A DNA stretch of 64,000 nucleotides, taken from Actinomycetota bacterium (lineage in GTDB: Bacteria > Actinomycetota > Actinomycetes > S36-B12). Positions 10,746 to 29,089 of the stretch are shown here, piece by piece. The notes below the pieces were generated by a model, which did no database searches, was not told the DNA's origin, and saw only the letters and a list, made by a program, of their open reading frames with translations. Made by a program: the position numbers and the translations under genes. Position 1 is the stretch's first letter, and the number at the start of each line of letters is the position of its first letter. The stretch lies in the NCBI GenBank assembly GCA_005798555.1, contig SYJA01000024.1:28735-92734 (forward strand). Reading direction: 5' to 3'.

Positions 10746-10932
10746 ACCACCCAGTGCCGAGAAGTGTGGATAACCTCACGTTTTCTACAAGTGTCCGGAA
10801 ATACACAAGGAAATCAACCGTCCGCGGCTCCTGGCTGGGAACTTTCAAGTGGGCTCGTCCGTCCTAATAACGAGTTCCATCCGATAAAAGCCGCAGGCCG
10901 CACACTGGCCTGCCCAAATTAAGGGAGTTCTG

Positions 10933-13914: not shown

Positions 13915-14292
13915 TTAGACATCTGGCGTGGCTGGGTCGGTGATCACCAGAACCCGTAAAGGTATTGAGCCGGTATTCACTAAATTGTGTTCAACCCCCG
14001 GATCCGCAAGCACGGCGTCCCCTGGACCCAACTCCACCGTCACCTTGCCCATCGTGACCTGAGCATTTCCCTCAACAACAAGGTATAACTCGGCCATCGC
14101 CCCATACTCCGGCTCAGATTCGTCATGCGAGTGCGCACCTTCGGTTGCCCCAACTGGCAGTTCCCAGATTTCGAGGTCCATTGACCACGGGTGTGCGCCC
14201 TCGAAATAACGTTGGACTGAAATCTTGCCAACCCCATCGTGCAGTTCCTCGTACGAAAAAACTCCCGCGCCCGCCCTTACGACCCGCACCAC
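13915..14292 (-). CDS. Cupin domain protein
   Basis: 125 aa. Cupin motifs GAHSHDESE…ELYLVVEGNAQV…GDAVLADPGVEHNLVN. Confidence 0.7.
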   Translation of the reverse strand: MVRVVRAGAGVFSYEELHDGVGKISVQRYFEGAHPWSMDLEIWELPVGATEGAHSHDESEPEYGAMAELYLVVEGNAQVTMGKVTVELGPGDAVLADPGVEHNLVNTGSIPLRVLVITDPATPDV

Positions 14293-14318: not shown

Positions 14319-16274
14319 GTGTTTCCCAACCTGTTTAGCCCCCTTAGTCTAGGTTCGATCACCCTGAAGAACCGAATGTTCTCCTCAGGCCATGACACCG
14401 TGATGGCCGAAAAGGGTCGGGTTGGCGATCGGTTGATCGCTTATCAAAGCGCTCGCGCGGCCGGCGGGGTCGGGCATATCGTGCTTCAGGTCTCCGGGGT
14501 GCATGAGACTGCTGAGTACACGGACAGCGAGTTAATGGCTACCAGCGACGAAGTGATCCCCGGGTACCGCAAAATCGCGGAAGCAATTCATGCCCATGAC
14601 TGCCATGTTTTCGCGCAGCTCTTTCATGGTGGGCGCGAGGTGATGACCACTCCCGACGGGCTCCTAGGAGTTGCTTGGGCGCCATCGGCCATACCCAATG
14701 AGCGATTCCACGTGATGCCTCGGGCCTTGCACATCCCCTTGATCGAGGAAATCGTGCACGGCTTTGGCCTGACCGCGGCGCGAATGGCAACAGCTGGTAT
14801 CGACGGGGTTGAGATAGTGGCCAGTCACGGATACCTGCCTGCGCAATTCATCAACCCCCGTACCAATATTCGTGATGACATTTACGGCGGCTCGTTCGAG
14901 AATCGCATGCGCTTCACGCGCGAGGTACTTGACGCGGTGCGCGCCGCGACCCCCGAGGGTTTCGTCGTCGGCCTTCGTATCAGCCTGGGCGAGCGGGATC
15001 AGGACGGCCTGACGCCGCCTGAGTCAATGCAGGCCTGCCGGTACCTTGCCAATAACGTGGATTACCTCTCGGTGACCGCCGGCAGCAGCGCGACTTATTC
15101 GGGCAGCGTGCACATTGTGCCGCCCATGAACTACCCACCCGGCTATCTCGCGGACCTATCCTCGCAGTTACGCGAGACCGTTGATGTACCAGTCTTCCTT
15201 ACCGGTCGGGTTAATACCCCGGCTGAAGCCGAACGAATCATCTCCGCCGGCAAGGCAGATGCGGTGGCGATGACCCGTGCGCTCATCTGCGATCCACTAC
15301 TGCCCAATAAAGCCCAAGACGGCGAAACCGAAACTATCCGGCTGTGCATTGGCTGTAATCAGGCCTGTATCGGGCACTTCCACCTGGGCGTACCCATCTC
15401 CTGTATTCAATACCCTGAGAGTGGCCGCGAGCGCGAGTTCGGCAGTTTACCGATGACCGCCAACGTGAAACGGGTACTCATTGTCGGTGGCGGACCGGCC
15501 GGCCTGAAAGCCGCCGCAGTTGCGGCCGCACGTGGACATGACGTTGAACTCTGGGAAGCCGCGGCAACCCTTGGTGGTCAGACCCAGTTAGCGCAACTGC
15601 TGCCGGGGCGCGCTGAGTTCGGTGGGATTGTGCCAAATCTTGTCGGCGAGGCAACACGCGCCGGCGCACGAATTTCAACCAATAAAACCGCGGACTACAA
15701 ATTAATTACCGAGTATCAGGCCGATCTTGTGGTGCTCGCAACGGGCGCCTTACCCTATGCCCCGCCCATCGAAACCCTCGATGATGAGGTGAACATCCCG
15801 ATCTTCGATTCCTGGGAAGTGCTGCGTGGGGCCCAATTACCTGCTGGCGCCATTCTCGTCGCTGACTGGCGCGGTGACTGGATCGGCCTCGGGGTCGCCA
15901 CCTTGGTCGCCGAGCGTGGGCACCCGGTAACCCTTTGTGTTCAGGGTTGGACCGCTGGGCACGCGCTGCAGCAATATGTGCGCAAGGAAATGTTGGCTGA
16001 CGCCATCAGGCACCGGGTCAGTATCCGTGACGACCTGCGGATCCGCGGTATCTCCGGTGACACGGTCTACTTGGGCCACACGCTGACCGAAGAGGCCGTG
16101 GAGATATCTGGGGTCTCGGCAATTGTGCTGGCCACCGGCCACCGCGCTAATGACTCGCTCTTCCATGAACTTGCCGAACGCGGAGCAAATGTGCGCCTAA
16201 TTGGCGATGCACTCGCGCCGCGTACAGCCGAGGAGGCCGTATTTGATGGACTTCGGGTCGGCGCGGAGTTTTAG
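14319..16274 (+). CDS. OYE-like FMN / 4Fe-4S / FAD-NAD(P) oxidoreductase (2,4-dienoyl-CoA reductase, DgcA, StcD-type architecture)
   Basis: N-terminal TIM-barrel NADH:flavin oxidoreductase block (LKNRMFSSGH…HGYLPAQF). Cys cluster CIGCNQACIGHF…C. C-terminal VLIVGGGPAGL dinucleotide fold. 651 aa. Confidence 0.85.
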   Translation: MFPNLFSPLSLGSITLKNRMFSSGHDTVMAEKGRVGDRLIAYQSARAAGGVGHIVLQVSGVHETAEYTDSELMATSDEVIPGYRKIAEAIHAHDCHVFAQLFHGGREVMTTPDGLLGVAWAPSAIPNERFHVMPRALHIPLIEEIVHGFGLTAARMATAGIDGVEIVASHGYLPAQFINPRTNIRDDIYGGSFENRMRFTREVLDAVRAATPEGFVVGLRISLGERDQDGLTPPESMQACRYLANNVDYLSVTAGSSATYSGSVHIVPPMNYPPGYLADLSSQLRETVDVPVFLTGRVNTPAEAERIISAGKADAVAMTRALICDPLLPNKAQDGETETIRLCIGCNQACIGHFHLGVPISCIQYPESGREREFGSLPMTANVKRVLIVGGGPAGLKAAAVAAARGHDVELWEAAATLGGQTQLAQLLPGRAEFGGIVPNLVGEATRAGARISTNKTADYKLITEYQADLVVLATGALPYAPPIETLDDEVNIPIFDSWEVLRGAQLPAGAILVADWRGDWIGLGVATLVAERGHPVTLCVQGWTAGHALQQYVRKEMLADAIRHRVSIRDDLRIRGISGDTVYLGHTLTEEAVEISGVSAIVLATGHRANDSLFHELAERGANVRLIGDALAPRTAEEAVFDGLRVGAEF

Positions 16275-17729
16275 CTAGGCGACATTGATGGCGGGCCCAG
16301 GCCCAGCCGACTTAATGAGCCTGGCGCGGTCCTTGCTCCATGATTTGTAAGCGCGGTCGGTGGCCTCGCCAATGATCGATACCATGCGGTCTATTTCCTT
16401 CGCGCCAGAAACCAACGGGGGCGATAGCTGAATAACCGGTTCACCTCGATCGTCCAATCTGCAGAGCAACCCCAATTCGTCCATGTGCCCGGATAGTTCA
16501 TCGCGCAGGAGCCAATTTGCCTCTGCTTCGTCAAACATCTCACGGGTTTCACGATTCTTTACCAACTCGATTGCCCAGAAGAATCCGGCACCGCGGATAT
16601 CGCCAACGAGTGGGTTGGCGCGCAACTCCTGCAGCCTATTTTCAAAATACCCTTCGAGGGTGCGCACATTCTCGAACACCTGCTCACGGTCGTAAATATC
16701 CATGACCTTTAGCGCGATGGCAGTCGAAAGCGGGTGCCCACTGAAGGTTAGTCCGTGCATGTAGGTCACCGCTCCGGTCACAAAAGGCTCGGCAACCCGG
16801 TCATTCATGAGGACGCCACCTAATGGTGCATGGCCCGCCGTCGCCCCTTTGGCAAAAGTAATAAGGTCGGGCCGAGCGGCAAATCGCATCGAGCCAAACC
16901 ACTCACCGACCCGGCCAAAAGCGCTGATGGTTTCGTCGGCCACCAATAAAATCCCGTACCGATCGCATAACTCGCGCAGCCCGGACCAGTAGCCCGCCGG
17001 TGGCGTGAACGCCCCGCCGGAATTCTGCACCGGCTCGGCGATCAGCATCGCGATCTCGTCAGCACCTTCACGAATAATCGTCAGGTGAATTTCATCCAGC
17101 AACGACTTGGTGAAGGCGGCTTCATTCGCACCATCCGGGTGGCGATAAGCATTGGTGTTGCTGACGAAAGATACCGGGATCGGCAACGGCAGGAATGGCT
17201 CCCGACAGTTATCGAGTCCGGTGAGGCTGAGTGCGCCGAGTGAGGTCCCGTGATACGCCAGGTCGCGGGCAATTGCCTTTCGTCGCTGCGGTTGGCCATT
17301 GGCAATGTGCCATTGACGAACCAGTTTCCACGCGGCTTCAACTGCTTCGCCGCCACCGCTGGTGAGAAATAGCCTGGTCATGCCCAGCGGCTCGGCTGCG
17401 CGCGTTAACCGCTCCGCGAGATGTACTGCGGCCGGGTGGGTCAGCGACCAGTTCGGCGAATACACCATTTCCGAAAGTTGCTGCTGGGCTACAGCGCCCA
17501 CCTCAGCCCCGCAGGAGTGGCCGAGGTTAGTGCAGAAGAGGCCGGAGAGCCCATCTAGGTATCGGCGTCCAAAGGAGTCGATGACTTCGCAGCCGTCGCC
17601 GCGAACCATAACCCGGATCGGCCGGTCATCGAAGTCACTTAAATCAGTGAAATTCAAGAGCAGGTGCGCCCGCGCTGCATCTTGGTCCGCGCTAGCGCCC
17701 CGGCGCCGCTTGGTAAGCATTTCCCACAC
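16275..17729 (-). CDS. Class III (omega-type) PLP-dependent aminotransferase
   Basis: 484 aa. Aspartate aminotransferase fold type I, class III pattern (…LTSGGGEAVEAAWK…LVADETISAFGRVGEWF…FAKGATAGHAPLGG). The start is either GTG 17729 or ATG 17720. Confidence 0.9.
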   Translation of the reverse strand: MWEMLTKRRRGASADQDAARAHLLLNFTDLSDFDDRPIRVMVRGDGCEVIDSFGRRYLDGLSGLFCTNLGHSCGAEVGAVAQQQLSEMVYSPNWSLTHPAAVHLAERLTRAAEPLGMTRLFLTSGGGEAVEAAWKLVRQWHIANGQPQRRKAIARDLAYHGTSLGALSLTGLDNCREPFLPLPIPVSFVSNTNAYRHPDGANEAAFTKSLLDEIHLTIIREGADEIAMLIAEPVQNSGGAFTPPAGYWSGLRELCDRYGILLVADETISAFGRVGEWFGSMRFAARPDLITFAKGATAGHAPLGGVLMNDRVAEPFVTGAVTYMHGLTFSGHPLSTAIALKVMDIYDREQVFENVRTLEGYFENRLQELRANPLVGDIRGAGFFWAIELVKNRETREMFDEAEANWLLRDELSGHMDELGLLCRLDDRGEPVIQLSPPLVSGAKEIDRMVSIIGEATDRAYKSWSKDRARLIKSAGPGPAINVA

Positions 17730-17737: not shown

Positions 17738-17755
17738 CCTGAACGGTCGTTCAGG
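17738..17755. promoter_or_regulatory. Perfect palindrome CCTGAACGGTCGTTCAGG, candidate TetR operator upstream of the aminotransferase
   Basis: 8-bp arms with a 2-bp spacer, 9-18 bp upstream of the aminotransferase start. A related half-palindrome CTGAACATTCAG lies at 17779-17790. It matches the site at 18517-18534 in 14 of 18 positions. Confidence 0.55.
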
Positions 17756-17810: not shown

Positions 17811-18461
17811 CTATTTTTTCCGTCGACCCCCAGCGGGCCCGGTTTTTTCACCGGCTGGGGAGATCCCAAGCTCCAGTACCGCCGATTGCCACCACAGTTC
17901 AGTGAATTTGCCGGTCGTCATACCCGGCTCGGCCAGGGCCAGCTGGATCGCGAGGCCATCCATCAAGGCGGCCAACCGAAGGACCGAAGCTTTCGGATCG
18001 CTGGCGGCAAAAACCCCGGCGGCCAGTCCTTCGTCAACCACCTGGCGCAAGGCGCCCCGCCACCGGTTATCCAAGGACTCCCTAGCGGCGCGGGCACCAT
18101 CATCGCGGATGGCCCGCACCCACAGTTCCAGCCAGAGCCGCCAATCACCTACGGCCGGGCCATATCCGGCGCCGAGTTCAGCGATATGGCGAAGGCGCGG
18201 TACCGGGCCAACCACCTCACTTAGGTTGCGCTCCAATTCCTCATAGAACTCGTCCTCGAGCAAGGTCAAACTCGCCGCAAGTGCGCCGGCCAGCGAACCG
18301 AAATGATAGAGAACCAGGCCCTGCGAGGTACCGGCCGCCTCCGCAATGTCGGTGACCCTCGTCCCCGCGAACCCACGTTCGCGCACGACGGCGATGGTGG
18401 CGCGCAGGATCCGTCCGCGCCGCTCCTCAGGCGCTTTCGCGGCCAACGTCGCTGCAGCCAT
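17811..18461 (-). CDS. TetR-family transcriptional regulator
   Basis: N-terminal HTH ILRATIAVVRERGFAGTRVTDIAEAAGTSQGLVLYHF. 216 aa. Divergent from the acyl-CoA dehydrogenase operon. Confidence 0.9.
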   Translation of the reverse strand: MAAATLAAKAPEERRGRILRATIAVVRERGFAGTRVTDIAEAAGTSQGLVLYHFGSLAGALAASLTLLEDEFYEELERNLSEVVGPVPRLRHIAELGAGYGPAVGDWRLWLELWVRAIRDDGARAARESLDNRWRGALRQVVDEGLAAGVFAASDPKASVLRLAALMDGLAIQLALAEPGMTTGKFTELWWQSAVLELGISPAGEKTGPAGGRRKK

Positions 18462-18516
18462 CTAACTCCTTGTCGATACTTAGCTCCACCGAGCAGAAAT
18501 CTAACCCATGCGGGTT

Positions 18517-18534
18517 ATTGAACGGTTATTCAGG
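18517..18534. promoter_or_regulatory. ATTGAACGGTTATTCAGG, second copy of the TGAACGG-N-TTCAGG operator motif in the divergent TetR/ACAD promoter region
   Basis: Lies in the 119-bp divergent intergenic region, nested inside a larger inverted repeat CTAACC…GGTTAG (18501-18538). Confidence 0.5.
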
Positions 18535-18580: not shown

Positions 18581-19765
18581 ATGGCTACGGCCCCAGACCC
18601 GAGTAACCCCATGCACCTTGCTGAGTTAAGTGCGCGCGCGGCGATATTCGTCGACGAGGTGCTGATTCCGCACGAAGTTACGGCTGAGCTGGCTGGCGGC
18701 CCGTTGCCCGCAGCAACGCAGCGTCAAATAGCGCAGCGGGCGCTCGAGCATGGTTTACATGGTGGGCTGCACTTGCAGGAGCATGGTGGCAATAGCTGGA
18801 CGACTACCGAGTGGTTTCTCGTGGAAGAGCAACTTGGTCACTCGACTAATGGGGTCTCTTGGTATATCCCGAATGCATACAACGTCTGGAAAGCCGGCAC
18901 GCCCGAGCAAATCGAACGCTGGCTTAAGCCGGCACTTCGAGGTGAACTGCACGACGCCTATGCGGTAACCGAGGCTGATGCTGGCAGTGACCCTTCGGGA
19001 ATTACCACAACCGCCATCAGGTCTGGTGCCGGCAGGTGGTTACTAAATGGCGAAAAGTGGTTCGTAACGTTTGGGTCCGTCGCCAAGGTCATAGTGGTGA
19101 TGGCGCTGGCAGATGATGGCGGTCAGTTGTTGCCTACCCTGTTCGCAGTTCCGGCCGACGCACCCGGTGTTGAGATGATTGCTGACGTTCCTTTCACCCA
19201 CAACTACCCCCATGGCCACCCCACCATGCGATTCACCGACGTTGAACTCACCGACGCCGACATCCTCGGCGGTCTCGGTAATGGTGAGAACCTGCAGCGG
19301 CTTTGGTTCACCGAGGAAAGACTCGGGATTGCCGCGCGCTGCATTGGTGCGATGCAGCGACTAATCGAGGAGTCAGTTGACTGGGCTGCAAACCGCGAAC
19401 AAGGCGGTGCCAGGCTCATCGATCATCAAGGGGTTAGCTTTCCGCTGGCCGACAGCGCAGCAGATGCGGCCGCCGGGCGCCTGCTCGGCTTGGAAGTAGC
19501 CCGGTTGGCTGATGCCGGTGCTGACCCCAAACTGGTGCACGGCAAAGCGTCACTGGCGAAACTCTTTTGCTCGGAAGCGGCCGGCCGGTGCGCCGACCGC
19601 GTGGTGCAGATCTTCGGCGGTCGCGGGTACATGCGCACCACGGCGGCCGAGAGATTCTGGCGCGAACTTAGAGTCGATCGAATCTGGGAGGGTACCTCTG
19701 AGATCCAGCGCCTCGTGGTCGCCCGCTCACTTGAGCGTCGTGGCGTTAAGTCAATGCTCACCTGA
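18581..19765 (+). CDS. Acyl-CoA dehydrogenase family flavoprotein
   Basis: 394 aa. ACAD fold blocks (AYAVTEADAGSDPSG…, …FGGRGYMR…IWEGTSEIQRLVVAR). Confidence 0.9.
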   Translation: MATAPDPSNPMHLAELSARAAIFVDEVLIPHEVTAELAGGPLPAATQRQIAQRALEHGLHGGLHLQEHGGNSWTTTEWFLVEEQLGHSTNGVSWYIPNAYNVWKAGTPEQIERWLKPALRGELHDAYAVTEADAGSDPSGITTTAIRSGAGRWLLNGEKWFVTFGSVAKVIVVMALADDGGQLLPTLFAVPADAPGVEMIADVPFTHNYPHGHPTMRFTDVELTDADILGGLGNGENLQRLWFTEERLGIAARCIGAMQRLIEESVDWAANREQGGARLIDHQGVSFPLADSAADAAAGRLLGLEVARLADAGADPKLVHGKASLAKLFCSEAAGRCADRVVQIFGGRGYMRTTAAERFWRELRVDRIWEGTSEIQRLVVARSLERRGVKSMLT

Positions 19766-19782
19766 TCGGATCTACCTCCAAT

Positions 19783-21801
19783 ATGGATATCTCACGGCTC
19801 ATTAACCCGTGCTCTATTGCCGTGGTTGGAGCGACCGATCGCCCCGGATCCTATGCGCACACCACCTTGCTTAACCTGATTCGAAATGGATATGCAGGAA
19901 CCGTTGTCGGTGTGCACCCAACTCGGCAAGAGGTACTCGGTTTTCGCTGCATACCTAGCCTTGCGGACCTAAGTGCGCCGGCAGCCGCGGTCGTGATCGC
20001 GACCCCGGCCGAATCGGTGCCGGGGTACCTCTTGCAGGCGCGCGAGCTGGGCTGCGGCGGCGCTGTGGTTTTTGCCGCCGGCTTCGCCGAAATCGGCAAT
20101 GACCTAGCCCAAGCAGATCTGATCTCGGCGGCCGGTGGCCTGCCGGTCATCGGTCCCAACGGCAACGGCCTGATATCCGTGCCAGCCAGAGCAGCGATGT
20201 GGGGGGATGCCGCCCAGCTACCAACCGAGGCAGGACCAATTGCCCTGATAACGCAGAGCGGCAATATCGGTGTCGTCCTGCTCGCCCATCGGCAAGGTCT
20301 CGGCCTGCACTCGATCTTCTCCGTTGGTAACTCCGCGGTGGTGGACACCGCGATGTTGATCGAGTCACTTGCCACCACCGATGGTGTCCGGGTCATCGGT
20401 GCCTACCTTGAAAGTGATGGCGAGGGGGCCAGGCTCGCCCGGGCACTTGCCAAGTGCGTACAAAACGATATTCGAGTGGTATTTCTAAAGGCCGGACGCA
20501 GCGAGCGCGGATTAATGGCCGGGGCGGCACACACGGCAGCGGTTGCCGGTGATCAAAGAGTTTTCGAGGCACTTATTGAAGAGGCCGGCGCAGTTCTTGT
20601 TCGAGAGCCGGTTGAACTGATCGAGACGGCACGCGCCCTAGCGATTGGTCGACGTGATGCACGCGGCGCGGCGGTTGTCACCTGCTCAGGCGGCGACGCC
20701 ACCCTCGCGGCGGACCTCGCCGATGACGCCGGGGCGATACTTGCCGACTTTGGCGCCCCGACGCTGGCGGCACTTGCCACCCTACTGCCCGAAACCGCGA
20801 CCGCGACCAATCCCCTCGACCACACTAATTTGGTCTGGGCCGACACCGAGGCCGTCACCGCAATCTGTGAAACTGTGGCCCTTGACCCGGGGGTTGGCCA
20901 TCTGATCTATGTGCAGGACCTACCGCCTGGGCTGCCCGCCGGCCCACGTGCCGAATGGGATGCCACCCGGGCCGGCGGGATTGCCGGCGGCGTGCGGGCA
21001 CAGCTTTCGACGATGCTGGCCAGTTCGATGCCCGGGCAGGAGCCGGATGATGCGGTCGGTGGGCTGGTCTCGGCGATGAAAGCGGTAGCCGCCCTCCAAC
21101 TGCCCGCACCAGATCCTGCGCGGCTACTGCGAATTTCCGAGTGCGCCAACCGGGCACCGGCCAAGGTGGGCAATCAGTACCTCGCCGAGCACTCGGCAAA
21201 GGAGCTACTCAGCGCCGCCGGGATCGCAGTTCCGAAAGCCAAAGTTGTTAGGGGTTCTGCGGCAGCAGCAGCGGCCGCCGTCGAAATTGGTTTCCCGGTT
21301 GCCGTGAAGCTGAGCGCACCCGGGCTCCTCCACAAAAGCGACATCGGCGCTCTGGCCCTTGGCTTGACCGACCCGGCGGCCGTTCACCAGGCGAGCGAAA
21401 AGATGCTGCAAATTGCGGCCCTCCCCGACGATCCCGAATTGTTAGTTGAGGCCATGGTCGACCCCGGTATCGAAATCTTCGTTGCCGCCCATCGCCTCGG
21501 CATCGTGCCCTGTGTTGTCGTTGGGCTAGGTGGGCTCTGGGCCGAGATTATGAATGACGTCGCGGTTATCCCGTTACCCACCGATAGCAATCGGATAGTT
21601 CGCGAAATTGGCCGACTTCGTGGTGCCGTACTGCTCACCGGCGGTCGCGGTCAACAGGGCCCTGCAATCCACGACTTGGCCCAACTCGTGGTCAAAACCG
21701 GAAATCTATTAATGGATGAGCACTGGGCGATGATCGAACTCAATCCCGTCATAGTTACTAACTCAACCGCAATAGCGGTCGATGCCGTTTTTTGCACCTA
21801 G
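19783..21801 (+). CDS. ADP-forming acyl-CoA synthetase (fused CoA-binding, ligase-CoA and ATP-grasp domains; acetate--CoA ligase family)
   Basis: N-terminal CoA-binding block SIAVVGATDRPGSY. Succinyl-CoA-synthetase-like middle domain. C-terminal ATP-grasp (…FPVAVKLSAPGLLHKSDIGALALGL…). 672 aa. Confidence 0.85.
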   Translation: MDISRLINPCSIAVVGATDRPGSYAHTTLLNLIRNGYAGTVVGVHPTRQEVLGFRCIPSLADLSAPAAAVVIATPAESVPGYLLQARELGCGGAVVFAAGFAEIGNDLAQADLISAAGGLPVIGPNGNGLISVPARAAMWGDAAQLPTEAGPIALITQSGNIGVVLLAHRQGLGLHSIFSVGNSAVVDTAMLIESLATTDGVRVIGAYLESDGEGARLARALAKCVQNDIRVVFLKAGRSERGLMAGAAHTAAVAGDQRVFEALIEEAGAVLVREPVELIETARALAIGRRDARGAAVVTCSGGDATLAADLADDAGAILADFGAPTLAALATLLPETATATNPLDHTNLVWADTEAVTAICETVALDPGVGHLIYVQDLPPGLPAGPRAEWDATRAGGIAGGVRAQLSTMLASSMPGQEPDDAVGGLVSAMKAVAALQLPAPDPARLLRISECANRAPAKVGNQYLAEHSAKELLSAAGIAVPKAKVVRGSAAAAAAAVEIGFPVAVKLSAPGLLHKSDIGALALGLTDPAAVHQASEKMLQIAALPDDPELLVEAMVDPGIEIFVAAHRLGIVPCVVVGLGGLWAEIMNDVAVIPLPTDSNRIVREIGRLRGAVLLTGGRGQQGPAIHDLAQLVVKTGNLLMDEHWAMIELNPVIVTNSTAIAVDAVFCT

Positions 21802-23083
21802 TAACCCGGCCCGCCAACTGGACGGTAATTCCCACATTGCCTATGCTTTCAGGGTGAACAATCCAAAAACGTCTGCTCCATTAGACCCGGCTGCCTTAGC
21901 TCAGTCACTAGCGCCATTTGGCGAAAGCCGAATGCTCCCGCCGGAGGCCTACACCTCCCCGGAGGTTTTCGCCTGGGAGAGCGCCAACTTTTTTTCCGGC
22001 TGGCACTGCATTGGACGCAGTGCAGACATTGCCGCCGCTGGCATGCAACGAGCTGACAAAGTAGGTGATACCACCGTGCTGCTTGTTCGCGGCGAGGATC
22101 TGGTCCTGCGTGCGTTTGCCAATGTCTGCCGCCACCGCGGCCACGAGATTCTTCCGTGCGGTGGGTCCACTACGGCTCGGGCAATAACTTGCCCGTACCA
22201 CTCATGGTCCTATCGGCTGGACGGGGATCTTTTCAGCGCAGCCGGCTACCAAGGTGAGTCGAATTTCGATGTTTCCGAATTTCCGCTCAGGGCACTTTGC
22301 GTGCAGGAGTGGCACGGGTGGATCTTCCTCGATCCATCAGGGTCCGCCGGCCCCCTAGGGATGCACCTTGCGGGATTAGAGGAGCGCATCGGCCAATATC
22401 AACCCGAACGACTAGTTGTGATGGCCTCCCACGAGTACGTAATCGAGGCCAACTGGAAGATCATCAATGAGAACTATCAGGAGTGCTACCACTGCACTTC
22501 TATTCATCCCGAACTCTGCCAGGTCAGCCCACCCGAAAGCGGTGAGAATTGGGCTTCGACCCTTGGTTCGTGGGTTGGGGGATGGCAAGACCTCCGTGAT
22601 CACGCTATGACGATGTCACTCGACGGTCACAGCGATGGAGTCCCGATACCGAACCTGTCACCGAGCGAACTTCGGCGCATTGACTACATCGGAGTTTTCC
22701 CGAACCTGCTGGTCAGCCTGCACCCGGATTACCTAATGACGCACCGCGCAATTCCTCTCTCGCCCAATCGCACTTGGGTCGAATGCTCCTGGGCTTTCCC
22801 CCCGGAGGCAATTGCTTCACCAACATTTGATCCCGCCTACGCGGTTGACTTCTGGGATATCACCAACCGCGAGGACTGGACCGCCTGCGAATCCGTCCAG
22901 CGCGGGCTGGAGTCTGGGTTTGCCAAAGCCGGGCCGCTATCACCCGCCGAGGACGCCATCTATCAATTTGTCACGATGGTTGCCCGCGGCTACCTCGGAC
23001 AACCGCTATCGCCCCTGAGTACCTCGGCACCCATTAACGCGGCCAATTCAGACGCTGCGCAAAGTCGGAAAGTGGAACATTGA
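21782..23083 (+). CDS. Rieske [2Fe-2S] non-heme-iron oxygenase, alpha-subunit type
   Basis: Rieske motif CRHRGHEI…CPYHSWSY. Catalytic-domain block NENYQECYHCTSIHPELC. ATG 21782 overlaps the upstream gene by 20 nt, and GTG 21854 is an alternative start. Confidence 0.85.
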   Translation: MPFFAPSNPARQLDGNSHIAYAFRVNNPKTSAPLDPAALAQSLAPFGESRMLPPEAYTSPEVFAWESANFFSGWHCIGRSADIAAAGMQRADKVGDTTVLLVRGEDLVLRAFANVCRHRGHEILPCGGSTTARAITCPYHSWSYRLDGDLFSAAGYQGESNFDVSEFPLRALCVQEWHGWIFLDPSGSAGPLGMHLAGLEERIGQYQPERLVVMASHEYVIEANWKIINENYQECYHCTSIHPELCQVSPPESGENWASTLGSWVGGWQDLRDHAMTMSLDGHSDGVPIPNLSPSELRRIDYIGVFPNLLVSLHPDYLMTHRAIPLSPNRTWVECSWAFPPEAIASPTFDPAYAVDFWDITNREDWTACESVQRGLESGFAKAGPLSPAEDAIYQFVTMVARGYLGQPLSPLSTSAPINAANSDAAQSRKVEH

Positions 23084-23424
23084 TAACTGCCCCGTTCATC
23101 CAAGCAGCGAATGAAGTCGCAGACCTTGAGGACTGGGGGCCGCTAGCCGAAGCCACCGGTGCCCCAATGCAAACCTCCGGGCACACGATGTGGTCTGATG
23201 AAAATAACTGTGAAGCCGGGATCTGGGAGTGCACCGCAGGCCCGTCCTACTGGAGTTTGGAACAAAACGAATTTGTGCACATTTTGTCCGGCAGCATGAC
23301 GGTGACCCCTGATGAAGGCGAAAGGTTCTTCGCAGGTCCCGGCTTCACCTTCTTGGTACCCGTCGGCTGGAAGGGCACCTGGGAGATCCACGAGACCATC
23401 CGAAAGTTGTATGTCCTGTTCTAA
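23080..23424 (+). CDS. Small cupin protein (DUF861/EutQ-like)
   Basis: 114 aa. The TTG start overlaps the Rieske stop (cATTGA). Cupin strand pattern …EFVHILSGSMTVTPDEGE…GFTFLVPVGWKGTWEI. Confidence 0.65.
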   Translation: MITAPFIQAANEVADLEDWGPLAEATGAPMQTSGHTMWSDENNCEAGIWECTAGPSYWSLEQNEFVHILSGSMTVTPDEGERFFAGPGFTFLVPVGWKGTWEIHETIRKLYVLF

Positions 23425-23460
23425 TTATCTGATAGCAGTTGTCAGCCTGCCGCACAGTTC

Positions 23461-23478
23461 AGACCCTTGGCAGGGTCT
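23461..23478. terminator. Short stem-loop AGACCCT-TGGC-AGGGTCT between convergent operons
   Basis: 7-bp perfect stem with a 4-nt loop, located in the 64-bp convergent gap 23425-23488. Confidence 0.35.
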
Positions 23479-23488
23479 AAGCGGTCGG

Positions 23489-25075
23489 TTAGCGCAGATC
23501 CGTAAGCACCTGTTGACTGGCTAACCGGCCCGGTGCGCCGATCACGCAGCCACCCGGGTGGGTGCCGGAACCACACTGGTAGTAACCGCGAATTGGCGTG
23601 CGGTAGTCGCTGTAGCCGGGTGCCGGCCGGAAGAAGTACATCTGATGCGGGAAAAACTCGCCCGCGTAGATATTGCCCTCCGACAGGCCCGTCTTGGCTT
23701 CGATAATGTCGGGAGAGACGATTTCGCGCTGCAACACCAGATCGTTGAAGTTGGGGAAGAAACTTTGGATTGTTGCCTGTACCCGATCGGCCATGCTCTC
23801 CCGCTCCGCCTGCCAAGTGCTGCCCTTGAGCTCATAGGGGGTGTACATCACGTAGCAAGACATCACATGCTTGCCGGGAGGTGCCATATCAGGATCTATT
23901 AGAGATTGAATGCACGCATCCATGTATGGGCGTTCGGAGTACCAGCCATACTTCGCTGCGTCGTAGGCACGCTCCATGTATTCGACGGTCGGCGCCATGT
24001 TGATGAACCCGTGATACTGATCAGTGCGGCCACTGAGCGTGGGGTACTCCGGCAGTCCATCCAGGGCGAAGTTCACTTTTGATGAGACTCCTTGGAAGCG
24101 GAATCGCTTTATAGTTTCCACCAGATCAGCGGGTAGCTCGCGCGGATCGGCGATCTCCAGGAAGGTGCGCCGCGGATCCAGGGAACTCACAACGATCGGT
24201 GCCCGAAATTCAGTGCCGTCGCGCAGGGCAACGCCCTTCACCTCGCCCTTATCGGTAATGAGTTGATCAACGTGCGAGTCCAGCCTAATCTCCGCTCCGT
24301 ACGCCGTAGCTGCTCGGGCCAGCACCTGCGTGAAGCCGCCATTGCCGCCCTTGTGGAAGGACCAGGATCCGCCGAGACCGTCGTGCTCGCCCATTGACAG
24401 ATACAGCCAGTTCATGCCGCTGCCCGGTGACATTGGGCCCAATTTGATTCCCACACAAGCCGCCGAGCAGATCGTGGCCTTGATGATGTCGGACTCAAGG
24501 TAGTCATCGCAGAAGTCCGCGATGCTTCCGGTCAACAGGCGCACCGCGTCGTGGATGACTTTCTTGTCACCGGTGCCTAGATGCTTGAGCAGCCACGCCA
24601 TCCTTTCGACGTCGGCCGGATCATCGCTGAACAGGTTAGGCGGAATCGAGTCAAACAGAGGCCGGATGAACTGGCGCACGCGTGCGGTGTCATGCTCAAA
24701 GCGCTCCATGCCATCAACATCGGCTTTTGAGTGTCGCGCTATTTCCCGGCGATTCAGTCCGGAATCAGGTCCAAGCAAGAAATAATCGCCGTTTTCCATC
24801 GGGGCTAAATGTGAGCGCATCAACAGGGGCATGAATCCATAACGCACTAGATCGAGTTCCTGAATAATCTCGGGGCGCAATAGGCTGAGGGCATAGGAGA
24901 AAGTCGTGAACGAGAAGCCAGGCCGCAGTTCCTCGGTGATCGCGGCACCACCCACTAAGTGTCGCTGTTCAAGGACCAAAACCTTTTTGCCGGCCTTGGC
25001 AAGGTAGGCCGCATTGGTCAGGCCATTGTGGCCGCCGCCGATGACGATAGCGTCATAGTTAAAGGTGTCCGACAT
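23489..25075 (-). CDS. NAD(P)/FAD-dependent oxidoreductase of the phytoene-desaturase (CrtI-like) family
   Basis: N-terminal YDAIVIGGGHNGL…VLVLEQRHLVGGA dinucleotide fold. C-terminal …YYQCGSGTHPGGCVIGAPG. Start set at ATG 25075 (MSDTFNYD), 1 nt after the stop of the upstream GcvT-like gene. Confidence 0.8.
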   Translation of the reverse strand: MSDTFNYDAIVIGGGHNGLTNAAYLAKAGKKVLVLEQRHLVGGAAITEELRPGFSFTTFSYALSLLRPEIIQELDLVRYGFMPLLMRSHLAPMENGDYFLLGPDSGLNRREIARHSKADVDGMERFEHDTARVRQFIRPLFDSIPPNLFSDDPADVERMAWLLKHLGTGDKKVIHDAVRLLTGSIADFCDDYLESDIIKATICSAACVGIKLGPMSPGSGMNWLYLSMGEHDGLGGSWSFHKGGNGGFTQVLARAATAYGAEIRLDSHVDQLITDKGEVKGVALRDGTEFRAPIVVSSLDPRRTFLEIADPRELPADLVETIKRFRFQGVSSKVNFALDGLPEYPTLSGRTDQYHGFINMAPTVEYMERAYDAAKYGWYSERPYMDACIQSLIDPDMAPPGKHVMSCYVMYTPYELKGSTWQAERESMADRVQATIQSFFPNFNDLVLQREIVSPDIIEAKTGLSEGNIYAGEFFPHQMYFFRPAPGYSDYRTPIRGYYQCGSGTHPGGCVIGAPGRLASQQVLTDLR

Positions 25076-25076
25076 G

Positions 25077-26276
25077 TCAGGCGGTCTTCCTCTCGGGGTT
25101 GTAAAAAGGCATGGTGGTGACGGTGGCACGTACGTTTATGTACTCGTGGTTCACGGTTTGCTCAAGGTAGATGTCGGTGCCCGGTTCGGCGTACTTTGGC
25201 TTGACGCGAGCAATGCCGATATGGCGCTGGAGCACAGGTGAATACATGAAACTGGTGGCATAGCCAATACGTTGGTCGTCAGCGCTGTAGAGCATGGACT
25301 CCCACGCCACGGGTAGTTCATCGGGGACCGCAAGGTGGCCACGTGAATCGAAGAGCTCGTAGAAGTCACTCCAGGCCACGGTGATGCCGACCGTGCGCCA
25401 TCGGGAGGAGCCATCGACCCGTTCACGCAATATCGCCTCGCGGCCAATGAACGGTCGACTGTCATCCTCAATGCCTTTGAGGAGCCAGCCGAGGCCTAAC
25501 TCATCGGGTGTGAAGCGATCCTCTGCGGTCCAGGCGTAACGACTGGAGTTGAATTCCACGCCAATGAGCGGCAAGCCCGCCTCAATGCGGGTCATACCAA
25601 GTGCTTCATCGCCGTATGGGCGAATTCCATGCGGCTGCCCGGCCTCAAGAATGGCATCAAGGACTCGCAGTGCATCAGCGGCGGGAATCATCACCTCATA
25701 GCCGAGATCACCACTGAACCCGGTGCGGCTAATTATCACCGGGGTGTTGGCAATTTTCGTTTCAGTAAATCCGAAGTAACGAAGGCCCAAGATATCTGCA
25801 GTTAGAAGTTCGAGGATGTCACGCGACCGTGGCCCTTGGAGTGCCAGTGACGCGTAATCCTCAGTCGCATCGACGATCTCGACGTCGTACAGGCTACTTA
25901 AATTGCTCAAGAAGCCGAAGTTGGGCTCCGCAGCCGTGAGCATGAATTCATCGGCCGAGAAACGAAATAGCACGCCGTCTTCCATGACGAACCCTGCATC
26001 ATCGCACCAGATCGTGTACTGAGCGCGCCCAGGTTTTAGGGTGCGGACATCGCGCGCAAAAACAAAGGAGCACAAAAGCTCAGCATCGCGTCCACGAATC
26101 CAGTATTTGTGAAGCGGCGACGTGTCGAAGAAGCCAGCAGCATTGCGAACGCCAAAGTACTCATGCTTACTCGATAGGTCATATCGAATGGCCGACAGGT
26201 AGCCGGACCAATTGCCCCACATCTGGCATTGGCTCAACTCCGCCAAGCGCGGGTGGAAGGGTGTCGTGCGGATCAT
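25077..26276 (-). CDS. Aminomethyltransferase (GcvT/DmdA-like, folate-binding) family protein
   Basis: 399 aa. GcvT-family blocks (…HEYFGVRNAAGFFDTSPLHKYWIRGRDA…, …ISRTGFSGDLGYEV…). Confidence 0.85.
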   Translation of the reverse strand: MIRTTPFHPRLAELSQCQMWGNWSGYLSAIRYDLSSKHEYFGVRNAAGFFDTSPLHKYWIRGRDAELLCSFVFARDVRTLKPGRAQYTIWCDDAGFVMEDGVLFRFSADEFMLTAAEPNFGFLSNLSSLYDVEIVDATEDYASLALQGPRSRDILELLTADILGLRYFGFTETKIANTPVIISRTGFSGDLGYEVMIPAADALRVLDAILEAGQPHGIRPYGDEALGMTRIEAGLPLIGVEFNSSRYAWTAEDRFTPDELGLGWLLKGIEDDSRPFIGREAILRERVDGSSRWRTVGITVAWSDFYELFDSRGHLAVPDELPVAWESMLYSADDQRIGYATSFMYSPVLQRHIGIARVKPKYAEPGTDIYLEQTVNHEYINVRATVTTMPFYNPERKTA

Positions 26277-26352
26277 CGCTCTCCTTTACTTAGCCGATGG
26301 CTCACCCTAGGGGCTTATTGGACATTTGCGCAATAGCCTCTATCGTATCCGC

Positions 26353-26988
26353 ATGGCCCGGATGACCCCTGATGACCGGCGTGAGGCAATCATCGCCGCC
26401 ACCTTGGCGGTTATGCAGCGCCAGGGCATTGCCGCAACCACTGTCCGCGATGTGGCGGCGGAACTTGGCGCCTCCAGCGGCCTAATCCACCACTACATGG
26501 CCTCGATGGACGAGCTCATCGCCGAAGCCTTCGGGCGGGCGGCCGGTGCTGACCTGCTGGCGACCCGTGCCTTAGTCGAGCAAGGCCAAGATCCACTGGA
26601 ACAATTACGCTTCTTCTTCGACTCCTATACCCGCGCTGACGGGGATTCTGGGATGCAGCTGTGGCTCGATGCGTGGGCCGAAGCCGCTCGACGCCCCGAG
26701 CTTAGGCAAATCTCGCAACTACTAAACCAAGAATGGCAACAACTCATCTGCGGCATCATTGATGGGGGTGTGCGCGCCGGCGTAATGAACTGCGCCGATC
26801 CAGCGGCCGCTGCCTGGCGCATCCTGTCGCTACTGGATGGGCTTCACTTACAGGAGGTGGCGCATGGTGACAGCGTCACCGGGCACCAAGTTACCAAATG
26901 GTCACGCCACGGTGCCGAGATTGAACTTGGCTTGGACCCCGGCACCCTGACTAACTCCTCACAAGGCAATCGTCTAGCGCGGGCCTAG
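26353..26988 (+). CDS. TetR-family regulator (BetI-like context)
   Basis: HTH IIAATLAVMQRQGIAATTVRDVAAELGASSGLIHHY. Divergent from the GcvT-like operon. Start set at ATG 26353 (MARMTPDD). Confidence 0.85.
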   Translation: MARMTPDDRREAIIAATLAVMQRQGIAATTVRDVAAELGASSGLIHHYMASMDELIAEAFGRAAGADLLATRALVEQGQDPLEQLRFFFDSYTRADGDSGMQLWLDAWAEAARRPELRQISQLLNQEWQQLICGIIDGGVRAGVMNCADPAAAAWRILSLLDGLHLQEVAHGDSVTGHQVTKWSRHGAEIELGLDPGTLTNSSQGNRLARA

Positions 26989-26996: not shown

Positions 26997-27902
26997 CTAG
27001 GTATTCGATGCCGCATAGATACTGGCGATTGCAGCATCAAGAGCCGAGTTGAACTCCGCATCGGTCTGCTGCGCCGACAGACCTTCGGTCAGAGCCCGCG
27101 AGAAACTAGCGGTCATACCGTGATTGCGAGCCAAGCGCGCATTAGCATCAGCACGCGAGTAGCCGCCAGAAAGTGCAACCACGCGGAGAACCCGTGGGTG
27201 CTCGATTAAGTCAAGGTAGAAGTCGTCCCGCTCCGGCAACGTGAGCTTTAGCATGATGTGCTGATCTGCACTTAAGTGATCAAGTGCGGCCATAATTGCT
27301 GGCTTCAATAGGGCTTCCGCGGCCGCCTTCTGCGCACTATTGATGTCCACCTCGGGCTCAATGATCGGGACCAGACCAGCGCCAAGAATCTGGCGGCCAA
27401 CCTCGAACTGCTGGCCCACGACCGCATCGACACCGGTCGGATTTGCTAACTTGATAACCGAACGCATCTTGGTGCCAAATATGCCGTGGGAGTTCGCCCG
27501 CGCCAACAAGTCAGCCAGGTCGGGCATTGGCTTCATCAGCTGAGCGCCATCGACCTCATCTGCCAGACCCTTATCGACTTTCAGGAAAGGCACGATGTGC
27601 TTTTGATTCCACAGATACTCCGCGGTGCCAATGCCATCAATCTGACGATCCATCGTCATCTCAAATAAAATTGCACCGAGGATGCGATCACCGGTGAAAG
27701 CCGGGCTAGTGATGATCCGAGCGCGCATCTGATGAATCAGGTCGAACATCTCGCCTTCACCCGAATATGCGCTCTCTGCAACGCCGTAGAGCATCAAGGC
27801 CTTTGCGGTACTGCCGCCGCTTTGATCGAGTGCCGCGATGAAGCCATCGGCGTTCTTCATCTTGTCGAACTGTTCGATGTTCGCGCTGCCCATGCTGTTC
27901 AC
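26997..27902 (-). CDS. Class I fructose-bisphosphate aldolase
   Basis: 301 aa. [16 protein letters not shown] and PFLKVDKG (Schiff-base Lys region) blocks are typical of bacterial class I FBA. Confidence 0.8.
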
Positions 27903-28063
27903 GATGCATCCCCTCGTCGCAGGTGGTCACCCTCAATTTAGTGCCGGGCCCCTATTCCATTCTGGTGCATGGACTTTTGTGATGCATCGGCCGGTGGCCG
28001 GTGACCGCCTTGCCATTTAGGCGCTTTTCACTTAACCTTCGACCCGATCCTAGGGGAGATTTC

Positions 28064-29083
28064 ATGTGCACGAATTTCAAGGTACCAACCGCCGAGGACG
28101 GCTCGGTCGTAGTGGGCCGCAGCCTCGATTTCCCGCATTTCATGAGTTTTTCCCTATGTGCCACCCCGCGTGATCTCCCCCGGGTGGCCCTCGGCCCGGC
28201 CGGGGTCCCCACCAAGACATGGACCACGCGTCACGGAGTAGTCGGACTTGCGGTGACTGGCATGGATGCCGCGATCATGGACGGCATGAACACCGCCGGC
28301 CTATCCGCCCACCTGCTTTACATGGTCGGTGGCTTTTTCTATGCGCCGGCGGCCCGCGGCGACGGCACCGATGTCAGCCAACTCGAACTGGCCTCCTACC
28401 TGCTATCGACTTGTGCGACCATCGACGAGGTGCGCAAGGCGGTGGCCGAAATCAACATCTGGGGCTGGGATGCCGGCCTGCCTTTCACCCCGCCTGTCCA
28501 CGTGCTCGTGCACGACCGGGATGACTCTGCGGCCATCGAGTTTCGGCCCGACGGGGTCGTGGTTGTCGACAACCCAACTAGTGTCGGAACCAACTCCCCT
28601 TACCTCGAGTGGCACCTGCTGAACTTGAATCACCACACCGGCTTCTCGGCCGAAAACCGCCCGGGGCAACGCGTTCGCACGGGTGACGGTTTGAACATCA
28701 GGAGTCTGGGAGTTGGGTCCGGGCTCCACGGCCTGCCGGGCGACTACACCGGTGCCTCCCGCTTCGTGCGTGCTATCGCCCTTACTACCTTGGCCGAGAC
28801 GCCAACGGACGGCCGCGACGCGGAAATGCTAACCCTGCACGTGCTCAACACCTTCGACGTGCCGCCGGGCATTATCAAAGAGCCTGGGCCTGACCACTCA
28901 ATCGTAAACGAGCTCACCTACGCCGACACGATCGCCAATCTGACTGATCTGCGCTACGCCTATCGCGCCCTCGATGACCCGGAGGTGTATGTGGTAGATC
29001 TAAAAGAGACGGACTTCACCGGTGACAAATCAAGGTTTCGCGCACTCGCGGAACGCGGTGAGTTCACGACCATCAGCCTTTAA
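28064..29083 (+). CDS. Linear amide C-N hydrolase (choloylglycine hydrolase / penicillin V acylase Ntn family)
   Basis: Start set at ATG 28064, preceded by AGGGGAG. The resulting N-terminus MCTNFKV gives the Cys2 Ntn nucleophile. About 340 aa with no signal peptide. Confidence 0.85.
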   Translation: MCTNFKVPTAEDGSVVVGRSLDFPHFMSFSLCATPRDLPRVALGPAGVPTKTWTTRHGVVGLAVTGMDAAIMDGMNTAGLSAHLLYMVGGFFYAPAARGDGTDVSQLELASYLLSTCATIDEVRKAVAEINIWGWDAGLPFTPPVHVLVHDRDDSAAIEFRPDGVVVVDNPTSVGTNSPYLEWHLLNLNHHTGFSAENRPGQRVRTGDGLNIRSLGVGSGLHGLPGDYTGASRFVRAIALTTLAETPTDGRDAEMLTLHVLNTFDVPPGIIKEPGPDHSIVNELTYADTIANLTDLRYAYRALDDPEVYVVDLKETDFTGDKSRFRALAERGEFTTISL

Positions 29084-29089
29084 GGTGCA

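Follow-up and report, generated by a model that had tools for sequence, protein, structure and literature searches.

Group-V Rieske oxygenases, such as CntA (carnitine), GbcA/BmoA (glycine betaine) and Stc2 (stachydrine), differ at the position of CntA Tyr203, where an aromatic residue is characteristic of group Va (C–N cleavage) and an asparagine of group Vb (N-demethylation) (PMC7948474). The Cai (E. coli), Bco (S. meliloti) and Bbu (Emergencia timonensis) systems use CoA transferases or AMP-type ligases together with a hydratase and a thioesterase, or an O2-independent lyase (BbuA), and they contain no Rieske oxygenase, DUF861 cupin, transaminase or PotD-like importer. In DddX, an ATP-dependent lyase of dimethylsulfoniopropionate (DMSP), the key residues are the cation-pi Trp391, the catalytic Glu432, Phe435 and His292 (PMC8163506). 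Here we describe a 64-kb stretch of DNA (hereafter, the window) from an Actinomycetota bacterium (contig SYJA01000024.1, positions 28,735 to 92,734), in which genes for an acyl-CoA dehydrogenase (ACAD), an ADP-forming CoA ligase, a predicted group-V Rieske oxygenase and a small cupin form one operon under a divergent BetI-like TetR repressor, for which candidate operators are found. In it we recognise a trimmed version of a regulon that is conserved across Actinomycetota.

Gene content and boundaries of the operon

Families were assigned with Pfam and NCBIfam (release of June 2026). All four genes lie on the plus strand. The first, preceded by an AGGAGA Shine-Dalgarno sequence, encodes the ACAD (18581-19765), and the second encodes a fused alpha-beta ligase of the NDP-forming acyl-CoA synthetase (ACD) superfamily, which we call type A (19783-21801). 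They are followed by the alpha subunit of a Rieske oxygenase of the group-V (quaternary-amine) type (21854-23083; Pfam, motif alignment and comparison of starts) and by a DUF861/Cupin_3 (EutQ-like) cupin of 114 residues (23080-23424; Pfam). The original prediction had named the same four families, a tight packing as an operon, a 17-nt gap between the first two genes (19766-19782) and a TTG start of the cupin gene at 23080 overlapping the Rieske stop codon (TTGA), and in all these respects it was correct. The TTG start is sound, because homology between the cupin and its relatives runs from residue 2 onwards. By contrast, the 20-nt overlap between the ligase and Rieske genes that would follow from an ATG at 21782 is probably not real. 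Rieske homologues are mostly 385-410 residues long, an ATG is found exactly at the position of the window's GTG 21854 in three relatives (L001, L085 and L004), and L004 has an in-frame TGA immediately upstream of it; as judged from these comparisons, the Rieske gene therefore most likely spans 21854-23083 (409 residues), leaving a 52-nt spacer after the ligase stop codon. No terminator-like site was detected on the plus strand within 18581-23424. A hairpin core at 23461-23478 (-24.7 kcal/mol, z = -1.6), between the convergent cupin and CrtO-like genes, is possibly a bidirectional terminator, although with these values the evidence is weak.

A regulon conserved across Actinomycetota

A search with the Rieske protein gave at least about 600 candidate stretches. 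A scan restricted to one genome per species yielded 80 loci with Rieske relatives 56-91% identical to that of the window, almost throughout from Actinomycetota, and contig look-ups added two more, making 82. Proteins of the window and of two relatives were then mapped within 10 kb of each Rieske gene. Many of the loci are incomplete, and the subset with at least 8 kb on both sides of the Rieske gene comprises 47. The most frequent neighbour is the ACAD (49 of the 82 loci; 30 of the 47 with long flanks), followed by a PotA-like ABC ATPase (44/82), a sarcosine-oxidase-like DAO flavoenzyme (35/82), a TetR regulator (32/82), the ACD ligase (32/82; 21/47), the cupin (30/82; 23/47), a CrtO-like flavoenzyme (30/82), a PotD-like binding protein with permeases (25/82) and a class-III aminotransferase (23/82). 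The original prediction had pointed to a survey of relatives as the way to see whether the four genes are syntenic, and indeed all four families occur together at 16 of the 82 loci, in three gene orders and two classes of Actinomycetota; ACAD, ligase and Rieske genes are colinear at 12 genome loci and at L085-L087. Spacers across the loci measure 9-57 nt between the ACAD and ligase genes and 43-157 nt between the ligase and Rieske genes. The prediction had also failed to recognise the arrangement as a described pathway, and in full-text searches of the literature, too, we found no description of a cluster of group-V Rieske, ACAD, ACD ligase and DUF861 cupin genes.

Three layouts can be defined. 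In layout (a), characteristic of the near clade (the window, Nanopelagicales-type metagenome-assembled genomes and Kineosporia), a transaminase gene and a TetR gene on one strand are divergent from the ACAD-ligase-Rieske series, which is followed by the cupin, a DAO or neither and continues into a PotABCD-like importer operon, the last gene of which encodes a dimethylglycine-oxidase-like (DMGO-like) protein. Layout (b), found in the far clade (Streptosporangiaceae and Acidimicrobiia), consists of the Rieske gene, an ACAD gene on the opposite strand, a DAO-cupin pair, a CrtO-like-ligase operon and a TetR gene. In 23 of the Streptosporangiaceae loci (L020-L082) a glutathione-peroxidase gene stands after the Rieske gene, which suggests peroxide stress from the neighbouring oxidases. 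In layout (c), from Mycolicibacterium and Nocardioides, the ligase and CrtO-like genes are divergent from a TetR gene, accompanied by an ATPase-aminotransferase operon and by an operon of binding protein, two permeases and Rieske oxygenase, and the ACAD is not nearby. Cultured carriers include Kineosporia sp. R_H_3, which has the complete ACAD-ligase-Rieske layout, Mycolicibacterium komossense DSM 44078 and Nocardioides agariphilus KCTC 19276; the PotD-like binding protein is encoded at 12788-14086 in L001 and at 6945-8045 in M. komossense (L070). In layouts (b) and (c) the place of the transaminase is taken by another class-III subfamily, similar to glutamate-1-semialdehyde (GSA) aminomutase. 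The catabolic genes are also joined to those for transport: the DMGO-like gene is the last of the transporter operon at 10 loci, and the Rieske gene is the last in that of Mycolicibacterium. Three loci (L008, L012 and L013) keep the Rieske, importer and DMGO-like genes and have neither ACAD nor ligase. No hydratase, thioesterase, aldehyde dehydrogenase, CoA-transferase, electron-transfer flavoprotein (ETF) or Rieske reductase is present among the conserved neighbours of the 82 loci; an enoyl-CoA hydratase gene is seen at a single locus, L090.

In the closest relatives of the window (L001 and L085-L087), the importer and DMGO-like genes lie between the cupin and CrtO-like genes, as a block of about 7 kb encoding the importer and a DMGO-like protein of 816 residues (11550-18400 in L001, 14798-21161 in L085). 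Because a 64-nt spacer (23424-23489) stands in its place in the window, the importer has been lost from the window's version of the regulon or has moved elsewhere.

Operators and shared regulation

The repressor gene divergent from the operon (17811-18461, minus strand) was assigned to the BetI-like TetR regulators by Pfam, NCBIfam and synteny. Motif searches revealed two candidate TetR operators, O1 (TGAACGGTTATTCA, 18519-18532) in the divergent promoter region between the TetR and ACAD genes, and O2 (TGAACGGTCGTTCA, 17740-17753) just 5' of a gene for a pyruvate-type omega-aminotransferase of class III (16275-17729, minus strand; Pfam and NCBIfam), which O2 places in the same regulon. The motif yTGAAC-N4-RTTCAG is kept at the O1 position in 10 relatives and likewise at O2 in 10 relatives, with 0.16 matches expected by chance in the window; moreover, in 1.47 Mb of related loci, all exact matches (20/20) fall at O1- or O2-type positions. 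The other layouts have ACTGA-N4-TCAGT, which shares the CTGA/TCAG half-sites with the O1 motif but differs in spacing. Its exact matches number 65, spread over 49 loci, where a mononucleotide model predicts 0.26, and all 65 are found in promoter regions of four kinds, namely, between divergent ACAD and DAO genes, between divergent CrtO-like and TetR genes, between aminotransferase/ATPase and binding-protein genes, and at TetR/Rieske genes. Furthermore, a variant, GACTGTATGGTCAGTC, occurs 5-100 nt 5' of the Rieske gene in 33 of 35 far-clade loci, compared with 17 of 410 control windows. As candidate operators are common to their promoters, the genes for the Rieske oxygenase, ACAD, DAO-cupin, CrtO-like-ligase, transaminase and importer constitute one TetR regulon. 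It is above all these common operators that argue for joint action of the ACAD and ligase with the Rieske oxygenase, as opposed to mere proximity of their genes.

Two further sites deserve mention. The perfect palindrome TAACCCATGCGGGTTA (18502-18517) adjoins O1 and scores as a terminator-like hairpin on the minus strand; it was rejected as an operator, since it is not kept in relatives and its matches with two mismatches are at chance level. In the ligase-Rieske spacer, AACTGGACGGTAATTC (21816-21831) resembles the far-clade GACTGGATGTTCAGTC, which is found 5' of the Rieske gene in L017, L018 and L081. The core CTGGACG of the spacer site is kept in three of four aligned relatives and TGGACG in all four, and it may be a remnant or a weak internal operator or promoter.

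The Rieske oxygenase

The Rieske and Ring_hydroxyl_A domains are both recognised (E 2e-50; 1e-14 for the Rieske domain alone). The Rieske ligands C92-R-H94 and C113-P-Y-H116 are invariant in 20 sequences, and the iron site, E210-C211-Y-H213-C214-TSI-H218, comprises the Fe ligands H213 and H218, the bridging E210 and the Cys pair C211/C214. This site aligns column for column with E205/C206/H208/C209/H213 of CntA and with Stc2, the corresponding motifs being ENYQECYHC-x3-H in the window, DNYMECYHC in CntA and ENNRECYHC in Stc2. The cation-pi position of CntA Tyr203 is occupied by Tyr208, invariant among the sequences compared, whereas Stc2 and GbcA have Asn there. Among solved structures, Stc2 (143 bits) and CntA (137 bits) are the closest relatives. 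Since identity to either is about one third, the N-terminal half being nearer to CntA and the C-terminal half to Stc2, and since the GbcA equivalog (NF058607) is matched at 172.5 bits against a cut-off of 670, and only over the model's N-terminal half, the alignments indicate a member of group V that belongs to a separate clade within it. JGI annotation labels the Rieske homologues 'glycine betaine catabolism A'.

The window encodes a second group-V-like Rieske oxygenase (46685-47743, minus strand; 352 residues), 38% identical to that of the operon, with an ENYNECYHC motif that likewise contains the Tyr. Its neighbours are a peptide ABC transporter of the Opp/Dpp type, an X-Pro dipeptidyl peptidase of family S15 and a DMGO-like protein of the DAO+GcvT type (open reading frames (ORFs) at 41495-43885 and 37720-41433 on the plus strand, and at 44707-46659 and 47760-49601 on the minus strand), and together they may serve N-methylated peptides or amino acids as a system of their own. 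In the ABC transporter region (39437-41433), the ATPase ORF 39437-40036 ends inside the ABC domain, about 460 nt before the next ATPase ORF, and may represent a frameshift or a pseudogene.

The acyl-CoA dehydrogenase and the CoA ligase

The ACAD has all three domains of its family (PF02771, PF02770 and PF00441; E 3e-44) and the canonical catalytic base, Glu370, in IWEGTSEIQ. Its best NCBIfam matches are the acryloyl-CoA reductase AcrC (160 bits, against a cut-off of 640), prolyl-PCP (peptidyl carrier protein) dehydrogenase (152 bits) and CaiA (134 bits), and AcrC is the top match for the window and far-clade versions alike. The nearest relatives are enzymes of short-chain or small-ring substrates, namely, AcrC, prolyl-PCP dehydrogenase, cyclohexanecarboxyl-CoA dehydrogenase, CaiA and short-chain acyl-CoA dehydrogenase. 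Homologues 73-91% identical number in the hundreds in metagenomes. Glutaryl-CoA dehydrogenase was rejected as an identity for this protein, its structures scoring about 90 bits compared with about 135-155 for short-chain ACADs.

The ligase combines CoA_binding_2 (PF13380), Succ_CoA_lig (PF13607) and ATP-grasp_5 (PF13549) domains (E 7e-40). Its phosphohistidine, His250 in GAAHTAAVAGD, aligns with that of the 4-hydroxybutyrate- and 3-hydroxypropionate-CoA ligases and with His292 of DddX, so that both the three domains and the phosphohistidine loop of the ACD superfamily are present. The solved relatives nearest to it are the archaeal 4-hydroxybutyrate-CoA (220 bits) and 3-hydroxypropionate-CoA (207 bits) ligases, followed by DddX (186 bits). 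The residues characteristic of DddX are not preserved: Thr348 occupies the Trp391 column, with Trp352 four residues further on, the 432-435 loop is deleted and the EFDGD loop is missing. The far-clade ligase is different. It is only 28% identical to that of the window, over about 300 alignable N-terminal residues, and its best solved relative over the full length (L060) is DddX, with 267 bits compared with 212 and 184 for the hydroxy-acid ligases. Trp391 is conserved in it (NPLDxWG) and an invariant Asp stands at the column of the catalytic Glu432. The window ligase carries the motif NPLDHTNLVW, and the Trp that follows NPLD was discarded as a sign of a cationic substrate, since a rhizobial ligase from elsewhere has Phe there. 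In a tblastn search of a plasmid collection, the ligase gave only matches of about 33-39% in unrelated contexts (Rhizobium, Sulfitobacter and Antarctobacter), which cannot be equated with the published DddX-like enzyme. In NCBIfam, no equivalog covers any of the four operon proteins, all scores being far under the cut-offs.

The cupin

The cupin matches Cupin_3 (PF05899, E 6e-19), and its AlphaFold2 model (pLDDT 95) is a single small barrel, for which the top Foldseek matches are the uncharacterised DUF861 proteins 3bcw, 3es4 and 3myx, followed by EutQ. It has no HxH...E...H metal site and only one near-invariant His; Trp49-x-Cys51 (WEC) is invariant. Sequence comparison with the PDB likewise gave only uncharacterised DUF861 proteins and EutQ-type matches as clues to function, and a profile search of 1.84 billion representatives, with a Pfam scan of the long matches, returned only DUF861 proteins, EutQ, tandem cupins and one TIM-barrel fusion. 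The cupin gene stands directly after that of a C–N-oxidising enzyme, which is the Rieske oxygenase in the window's subclade and a DAO at 28 other loci, and a single DAO-cupin fusion was seen, with no other informative fusion. The cupin would probably handle the reactive carbinolamine, imine or aldehyde product of the preceding enzyme. In Arthrobacter sp. H14-L1 (L088, 3833-8113), three tandem Cupin_3/EutQ-like genes, one of them encoding a protein 62% identical to the window cupin, lie directly upstream of a gene for a 706-residue betaine/carnitine/choline transporter (BCCT), which is an independent link of this cupin family to betaine-type solutes.

Possible function

We tentatively propose, with somewhat less than even confidence, that the regulon breaks down an imported cationic N-methylated, probably quaternary, amino-carboxylate by dealkylation, transamination, CoA activation and dehydrogenation; we infer both the substrate and the order of the steps. 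Such a substrate is suggested because a group-V Rieske oxygenase with Tyr, BetI-like repressors, folate-linked demethylase-type enzymes and a sarcosine-oxidase/ThiO-like DAO occur in one regulon, and the candidates would be omega-trimethylammonio acids of the beta-alanine-betaine, gamma-butyrobetaine or valerobetaine type. In the first step, the Rieske oxygenase, with O2 and with electrons from a reductase encoded elsewhere, would hydroxylate the carbon beside the charged nitrogen, and the first N-alkyl group would be lost. The DMGO-like, DAO and CrtO-like flavoenzymes would then take the remaining methyl groups, the one-carbon (C1) units being captured by folate-binding domains where these are present. 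The closest relatives of the window transaminase are amine, putrescine, gamma-aminobutyrate (GABA) and polyamine:pyruvate transaminases, so that a primary amine must arise along the route; the omega-transaminase would remove the resulting primary amino group. The ACD ligase could then form the CoA thioester of the short carbon skeleton, converting ATP to ADP, and the ACAD would introduce or remove an alpha,beta double bond, after which an ordinary short acyl-CoA would pass to housekeeping metabolism. That the CoA intermediates are no more than ordinary short acyl-CoAs is suggested by the regulon's lack of a conserved hydratase, thioesterase or aldehyde dehydrogenase. The connection of the operon with amines or betaines that the original prediction drew is upheld by the group-V signature, the BetI-like repressors, the N-demethylase-type flavoenzymes, the omega-transaminases and the PotD-like importer.

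Several observations speak against this proposal. All assignments are at the level of families. Tyr208 is a sign of group Va, that is, C–N cleavage, whereas the neighbours are demethylase-type enzymes; the window's second Rieske protein has the same Tyr, which may therefore be a trait of the lineage. The PotD/PotF-like binding protein points to substrates of the polyamine kind rather than to zwitterionic betaines, and the regulon has no gene for the aldehyde dehydrogenase that would have to act between transaminase and ligase. No Rieske reductase, ferredoxin or ETF was detected among the window ORFs of at least 150 residues, all of which were scanned, or among the conserved ORF clusters compared in 83 sequences (several such 'conserved' clusters were discarded as antisense artefacts). 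For the far-clade ligase the closest similarity is to DddX, an enzyme whose substrate is the charged compound itself. Finally, the window has neither the importer nor the orthologous DMGO-like gene, its own DMGO-like gene being a paralogue with 32% identity.

A bolder formulation is that the regulon represents a widespread, undescribed aerobic pathway of soil and freshwater Actinomycetota, in which an ACD ligase related to DddX (perhaps a ligase-lyase) and an ACAD process a charged amino- or onium-carboxylate in the form of its CoA thioester, in concert with a new group-V Rieske clade and a catalytic DUF861 cupin. A C3-C5 betaine is one candidate substrate for this, and the arm of a methylated polyamine, once oxidised, is another. 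We consider this possible, if doubtful.

The original prediction had the betaine itself enter the CoA route. In a route of this kind the ligase would activate a betaine such as gamma-butyrobetaine, in the manner of S. meliloti BcoAB, the ACAD would make crotonobetainyl-CoA like BcoC or CaiA, housekeeping beta-oxidation would give glycine betaine and a GbcA-like Rieske oxygenase would demethylate the latter, after which the DMGO-like and DAO enzymes together with the transaminase would lead from dimethylglycine through sarcosine and glycine to glyoxylate. A gamma-butyrobetaine:CoA ligase (BcoAB) and CoA-dependent gamma-butyrobetaine routes are known (PMC8364193; PMC2131755), CaiA is among the ACAD matches, and the DMGO-like protein resembles both dimethylglycine dehydrogenase (437 bits) and dimethylglycine oxidase (347 bits). 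The JGI label of the Rieske homologues is in line with this route, and the three loci without ACAD and ligase are what an optional front-end module would predict. We nevertheless regard it as unlikely. Crotonobetainyl-CoA hydratase, carnitine dehydrogenase, BKACE and thioesterase are all missing from the conserved genes of the regulon, which is somewhat against it; moreover, the Rieske protein scores far under the GbcA cut-off and has Tyr where GbcA and Stc2 have Asn, and the importer is PotD-like, not of the ProX/OpuAC or BCCT type.

Another alternative, which we likewise judge improbable, is beta-elimination: a DddX-like ligase would ligate CoA to a 3-onium- or 3-amino-propionate and eliminate the leaving group, the resulting acryloyl-CoA would be reduced by the ACAD in the manner of AcrC, and the amine that is set free or left over would fall to the Rieske oxygenase, flavoenzymes and transaminase. 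DMSP, beta-alanine betaine and N-methyl-beta-alanines are candidate substrates, as is the aminopropyl arm of a (methylated) polyamine after its oxidation. Known DMSP lyases include cupins, and the Arthrobacter homologues of the operon cupin adjoin a BCCT transporter. The rank of AcrC among the matches of both ACAD versions is as this route would have it, and a PotD-like importer and polyamine-type transaminases would fit it as well. The full-length similarity of the far-clade ligase to DddX, with its conserved Trp391 and its Asp at the Glu432 column, points the same way (PMC8163506). However, the type-A ligase of the window is divergent from the far-clade enzyme, scores lower against DddX and is without the EFDGD loop, and an aromatic residue after NPLD is common to unrelated rhizobial ligases. 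Besides, the ACAD falls far short of the AcrC cut-off, and plain polyamines or DMSP need no folate-linked demethylase domains or group-V Rieske oxygenase.

That the genes are coincidental neighbours, a Rieske oxygenase and a cupin of ordinary glycine-betaine or methylamine catabolism beside generic enzymes of short-chain fatty acids, would accord with the closeness of ACAD and ligase to short-chain enzymes, the three loci devoid of the pair and the amine-catabolic character of the window at large, but is very improbable given that the association recurs in three rearranged layouts and two classes of Actinomycetota, that the ACAD-ligase pair shares candidate operators with the amine-oxidising genes, that the spacers are short and that no terminator lies inside the window operon.

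Methylated amines and betaines are major sources of carbon, nitrogen and C1 units in soils and lakes, where their fate sets the release of trimethylamine and formaldehyde, and the regulon is common in uncultured freshwater and soil Actinomycetota. Solving it would turn several 'family protein' annotations into functions, establish a new clade among the quaternary-amine oxygenases and test the ligase-lyase chemistry of the DddX type on nitrogen compounds. If the regulon does encode an undescribed pathway as formulated above, it would provide the first function for this cupin family and a way of degrading betaines without release of trimethylamine. The operator and repressor would make a ready biosensor for the substrate once it is worked out.

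Other features of the window

Overall, the window amounts to an amine-catabolic gene island. Downstream of the cupin, a CrtO/phytoene-desaturase-family FAD oxidoreductase (23489-25129, minus strand) is encoded in an operon with a GcvT-like folate-binding protein (25077-26276, minus strand), both assigned by Pfam and NCBIfam, and a second BetI-like TetR gene (26326-26988) is divergent from this pair. As listed, the CrtO-like ORF overlaps the GcvT-like gene by 53 nt; in L001 it starts directly after the GcvT stop codon. The same pair accompanies the Rieske gene in L001, L014-L016 and L021; in appearance it is a folate-linked amine demethylase split in two and unusual in its composition. On the other side, two genes are linked to the regulon only in the closest relatives: one encodes a Cupin_2 protein (13915-14292, minus strand) and the other a flavoprotein of 651 residues (14319-16274, plus strand), which joins OYE and Pyr_redox_2 domains in an architecture like that of trimethylamine dehydrogenase and StcD and has 'mycofactocin system FadH/OYE 2' as its best NCBIfam match (581 vs 793 bits).

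Further away, a gene for a Zn-dependent alcohol dehydrogenase is directly followed by one for a metallo-beta-lactamase-fold hydrolase (35483-37209), a pairing typical of thiol-dependent formaldehyde detoxification, which fits a formaldehyde-releasing gene island. A class-I-aldolase-like gene, a linear amide hydrolase of the choloylglycine-hydrolase family and a flavin amine oxidase lie together at 26997-30484 and, by their predicted families, form another amine or amide catabolic unit. The ORF 33597-34130 (177 residues) matches only the middle of a pterin-binding domain and may be a gene fragment. At 8316-12711 there are genes for a 2-oxoglutarate-Fe(II) oxygenase, a bicupin of 380 residues (Cupin_2 and Cupin_3) and a GH18 chitinase with CBM2, which are unrelated to the operon as far as can be seen. 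No Rfam families or tRNA genes were found in the window.

Comparison with known systems

Each of the four families is known singly; no described system places all of them, group-V Rieske oxygenase, ACD ligase, ACAD and DUF861 cupin, under a single repressor. With CntA, GbcA/BmoA and Stc2, the window Rieske oxygenase shares the CxH...CxxH motif, the His-His-carboxylate iron, the bridging Glu and the Cys pair (PMC7948474), as well as the lack of a beta subunit gene. Unlike them, it has no adjacent reductase of the CntB/GbcB/Stc3 type, combines a Va-type Tyr with demethylase-type neighbours and shares its operon with an ACAD and a CoA ligase, an arrangement seen in none of those systems. The ligase resembles DddX and DddX-like enzymes in the fused CoA-binding and ATP-grasp architecture and in the phosphohistidine; in sequence, however, it is divergent and nearer to the archaeal hydroxy-acid ligases, and DddX clusters carry dddB, dddC and dddT, not Rieske, ACAD or cupin genes.

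The Cai, Bco and Bbu systems likewise treat a charged carboxylate as a CoA thioester, with an ACAD-family flavoenzyme (PMC8364193, PMC2131755) and with betaine-type regulators and transporters nearby, whereas a hydratase of the CaiD/BcoD type, a thioesterase and a class-III CoA transferase are not among the conserved neighbours here. The logic of demethylase, CoA ligase and ACAD also recalls DmdABCD, and a GcvT-family protein is encoded 1.6 kb downstream in the window. Yet DmdB is AMP-forming and the window ligase ADP-forming, the crotonase DmdD is absent here, and the GcvT-like protein reaches 107 bits against a DmdA cut-off of 410. A sulfur substrate is unlikely, because a transaminase and amine oxidases are present. 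Finally, the succession of a Rieske demethylase and folate-linked flavin demethylases is shared with glycine betaine catabolism (GbcAB, DgcAB/DMGO and Sox), and the PotD-like ABC importer with a pyruvate-type polyamine transaminase is shared with the Spu polyamine module of Pseudomonas. Both of these lack the ACAD, the ACD ligase, the CrtO-like flavoenzyme and the cupin, all of which are brought together here under one operator.

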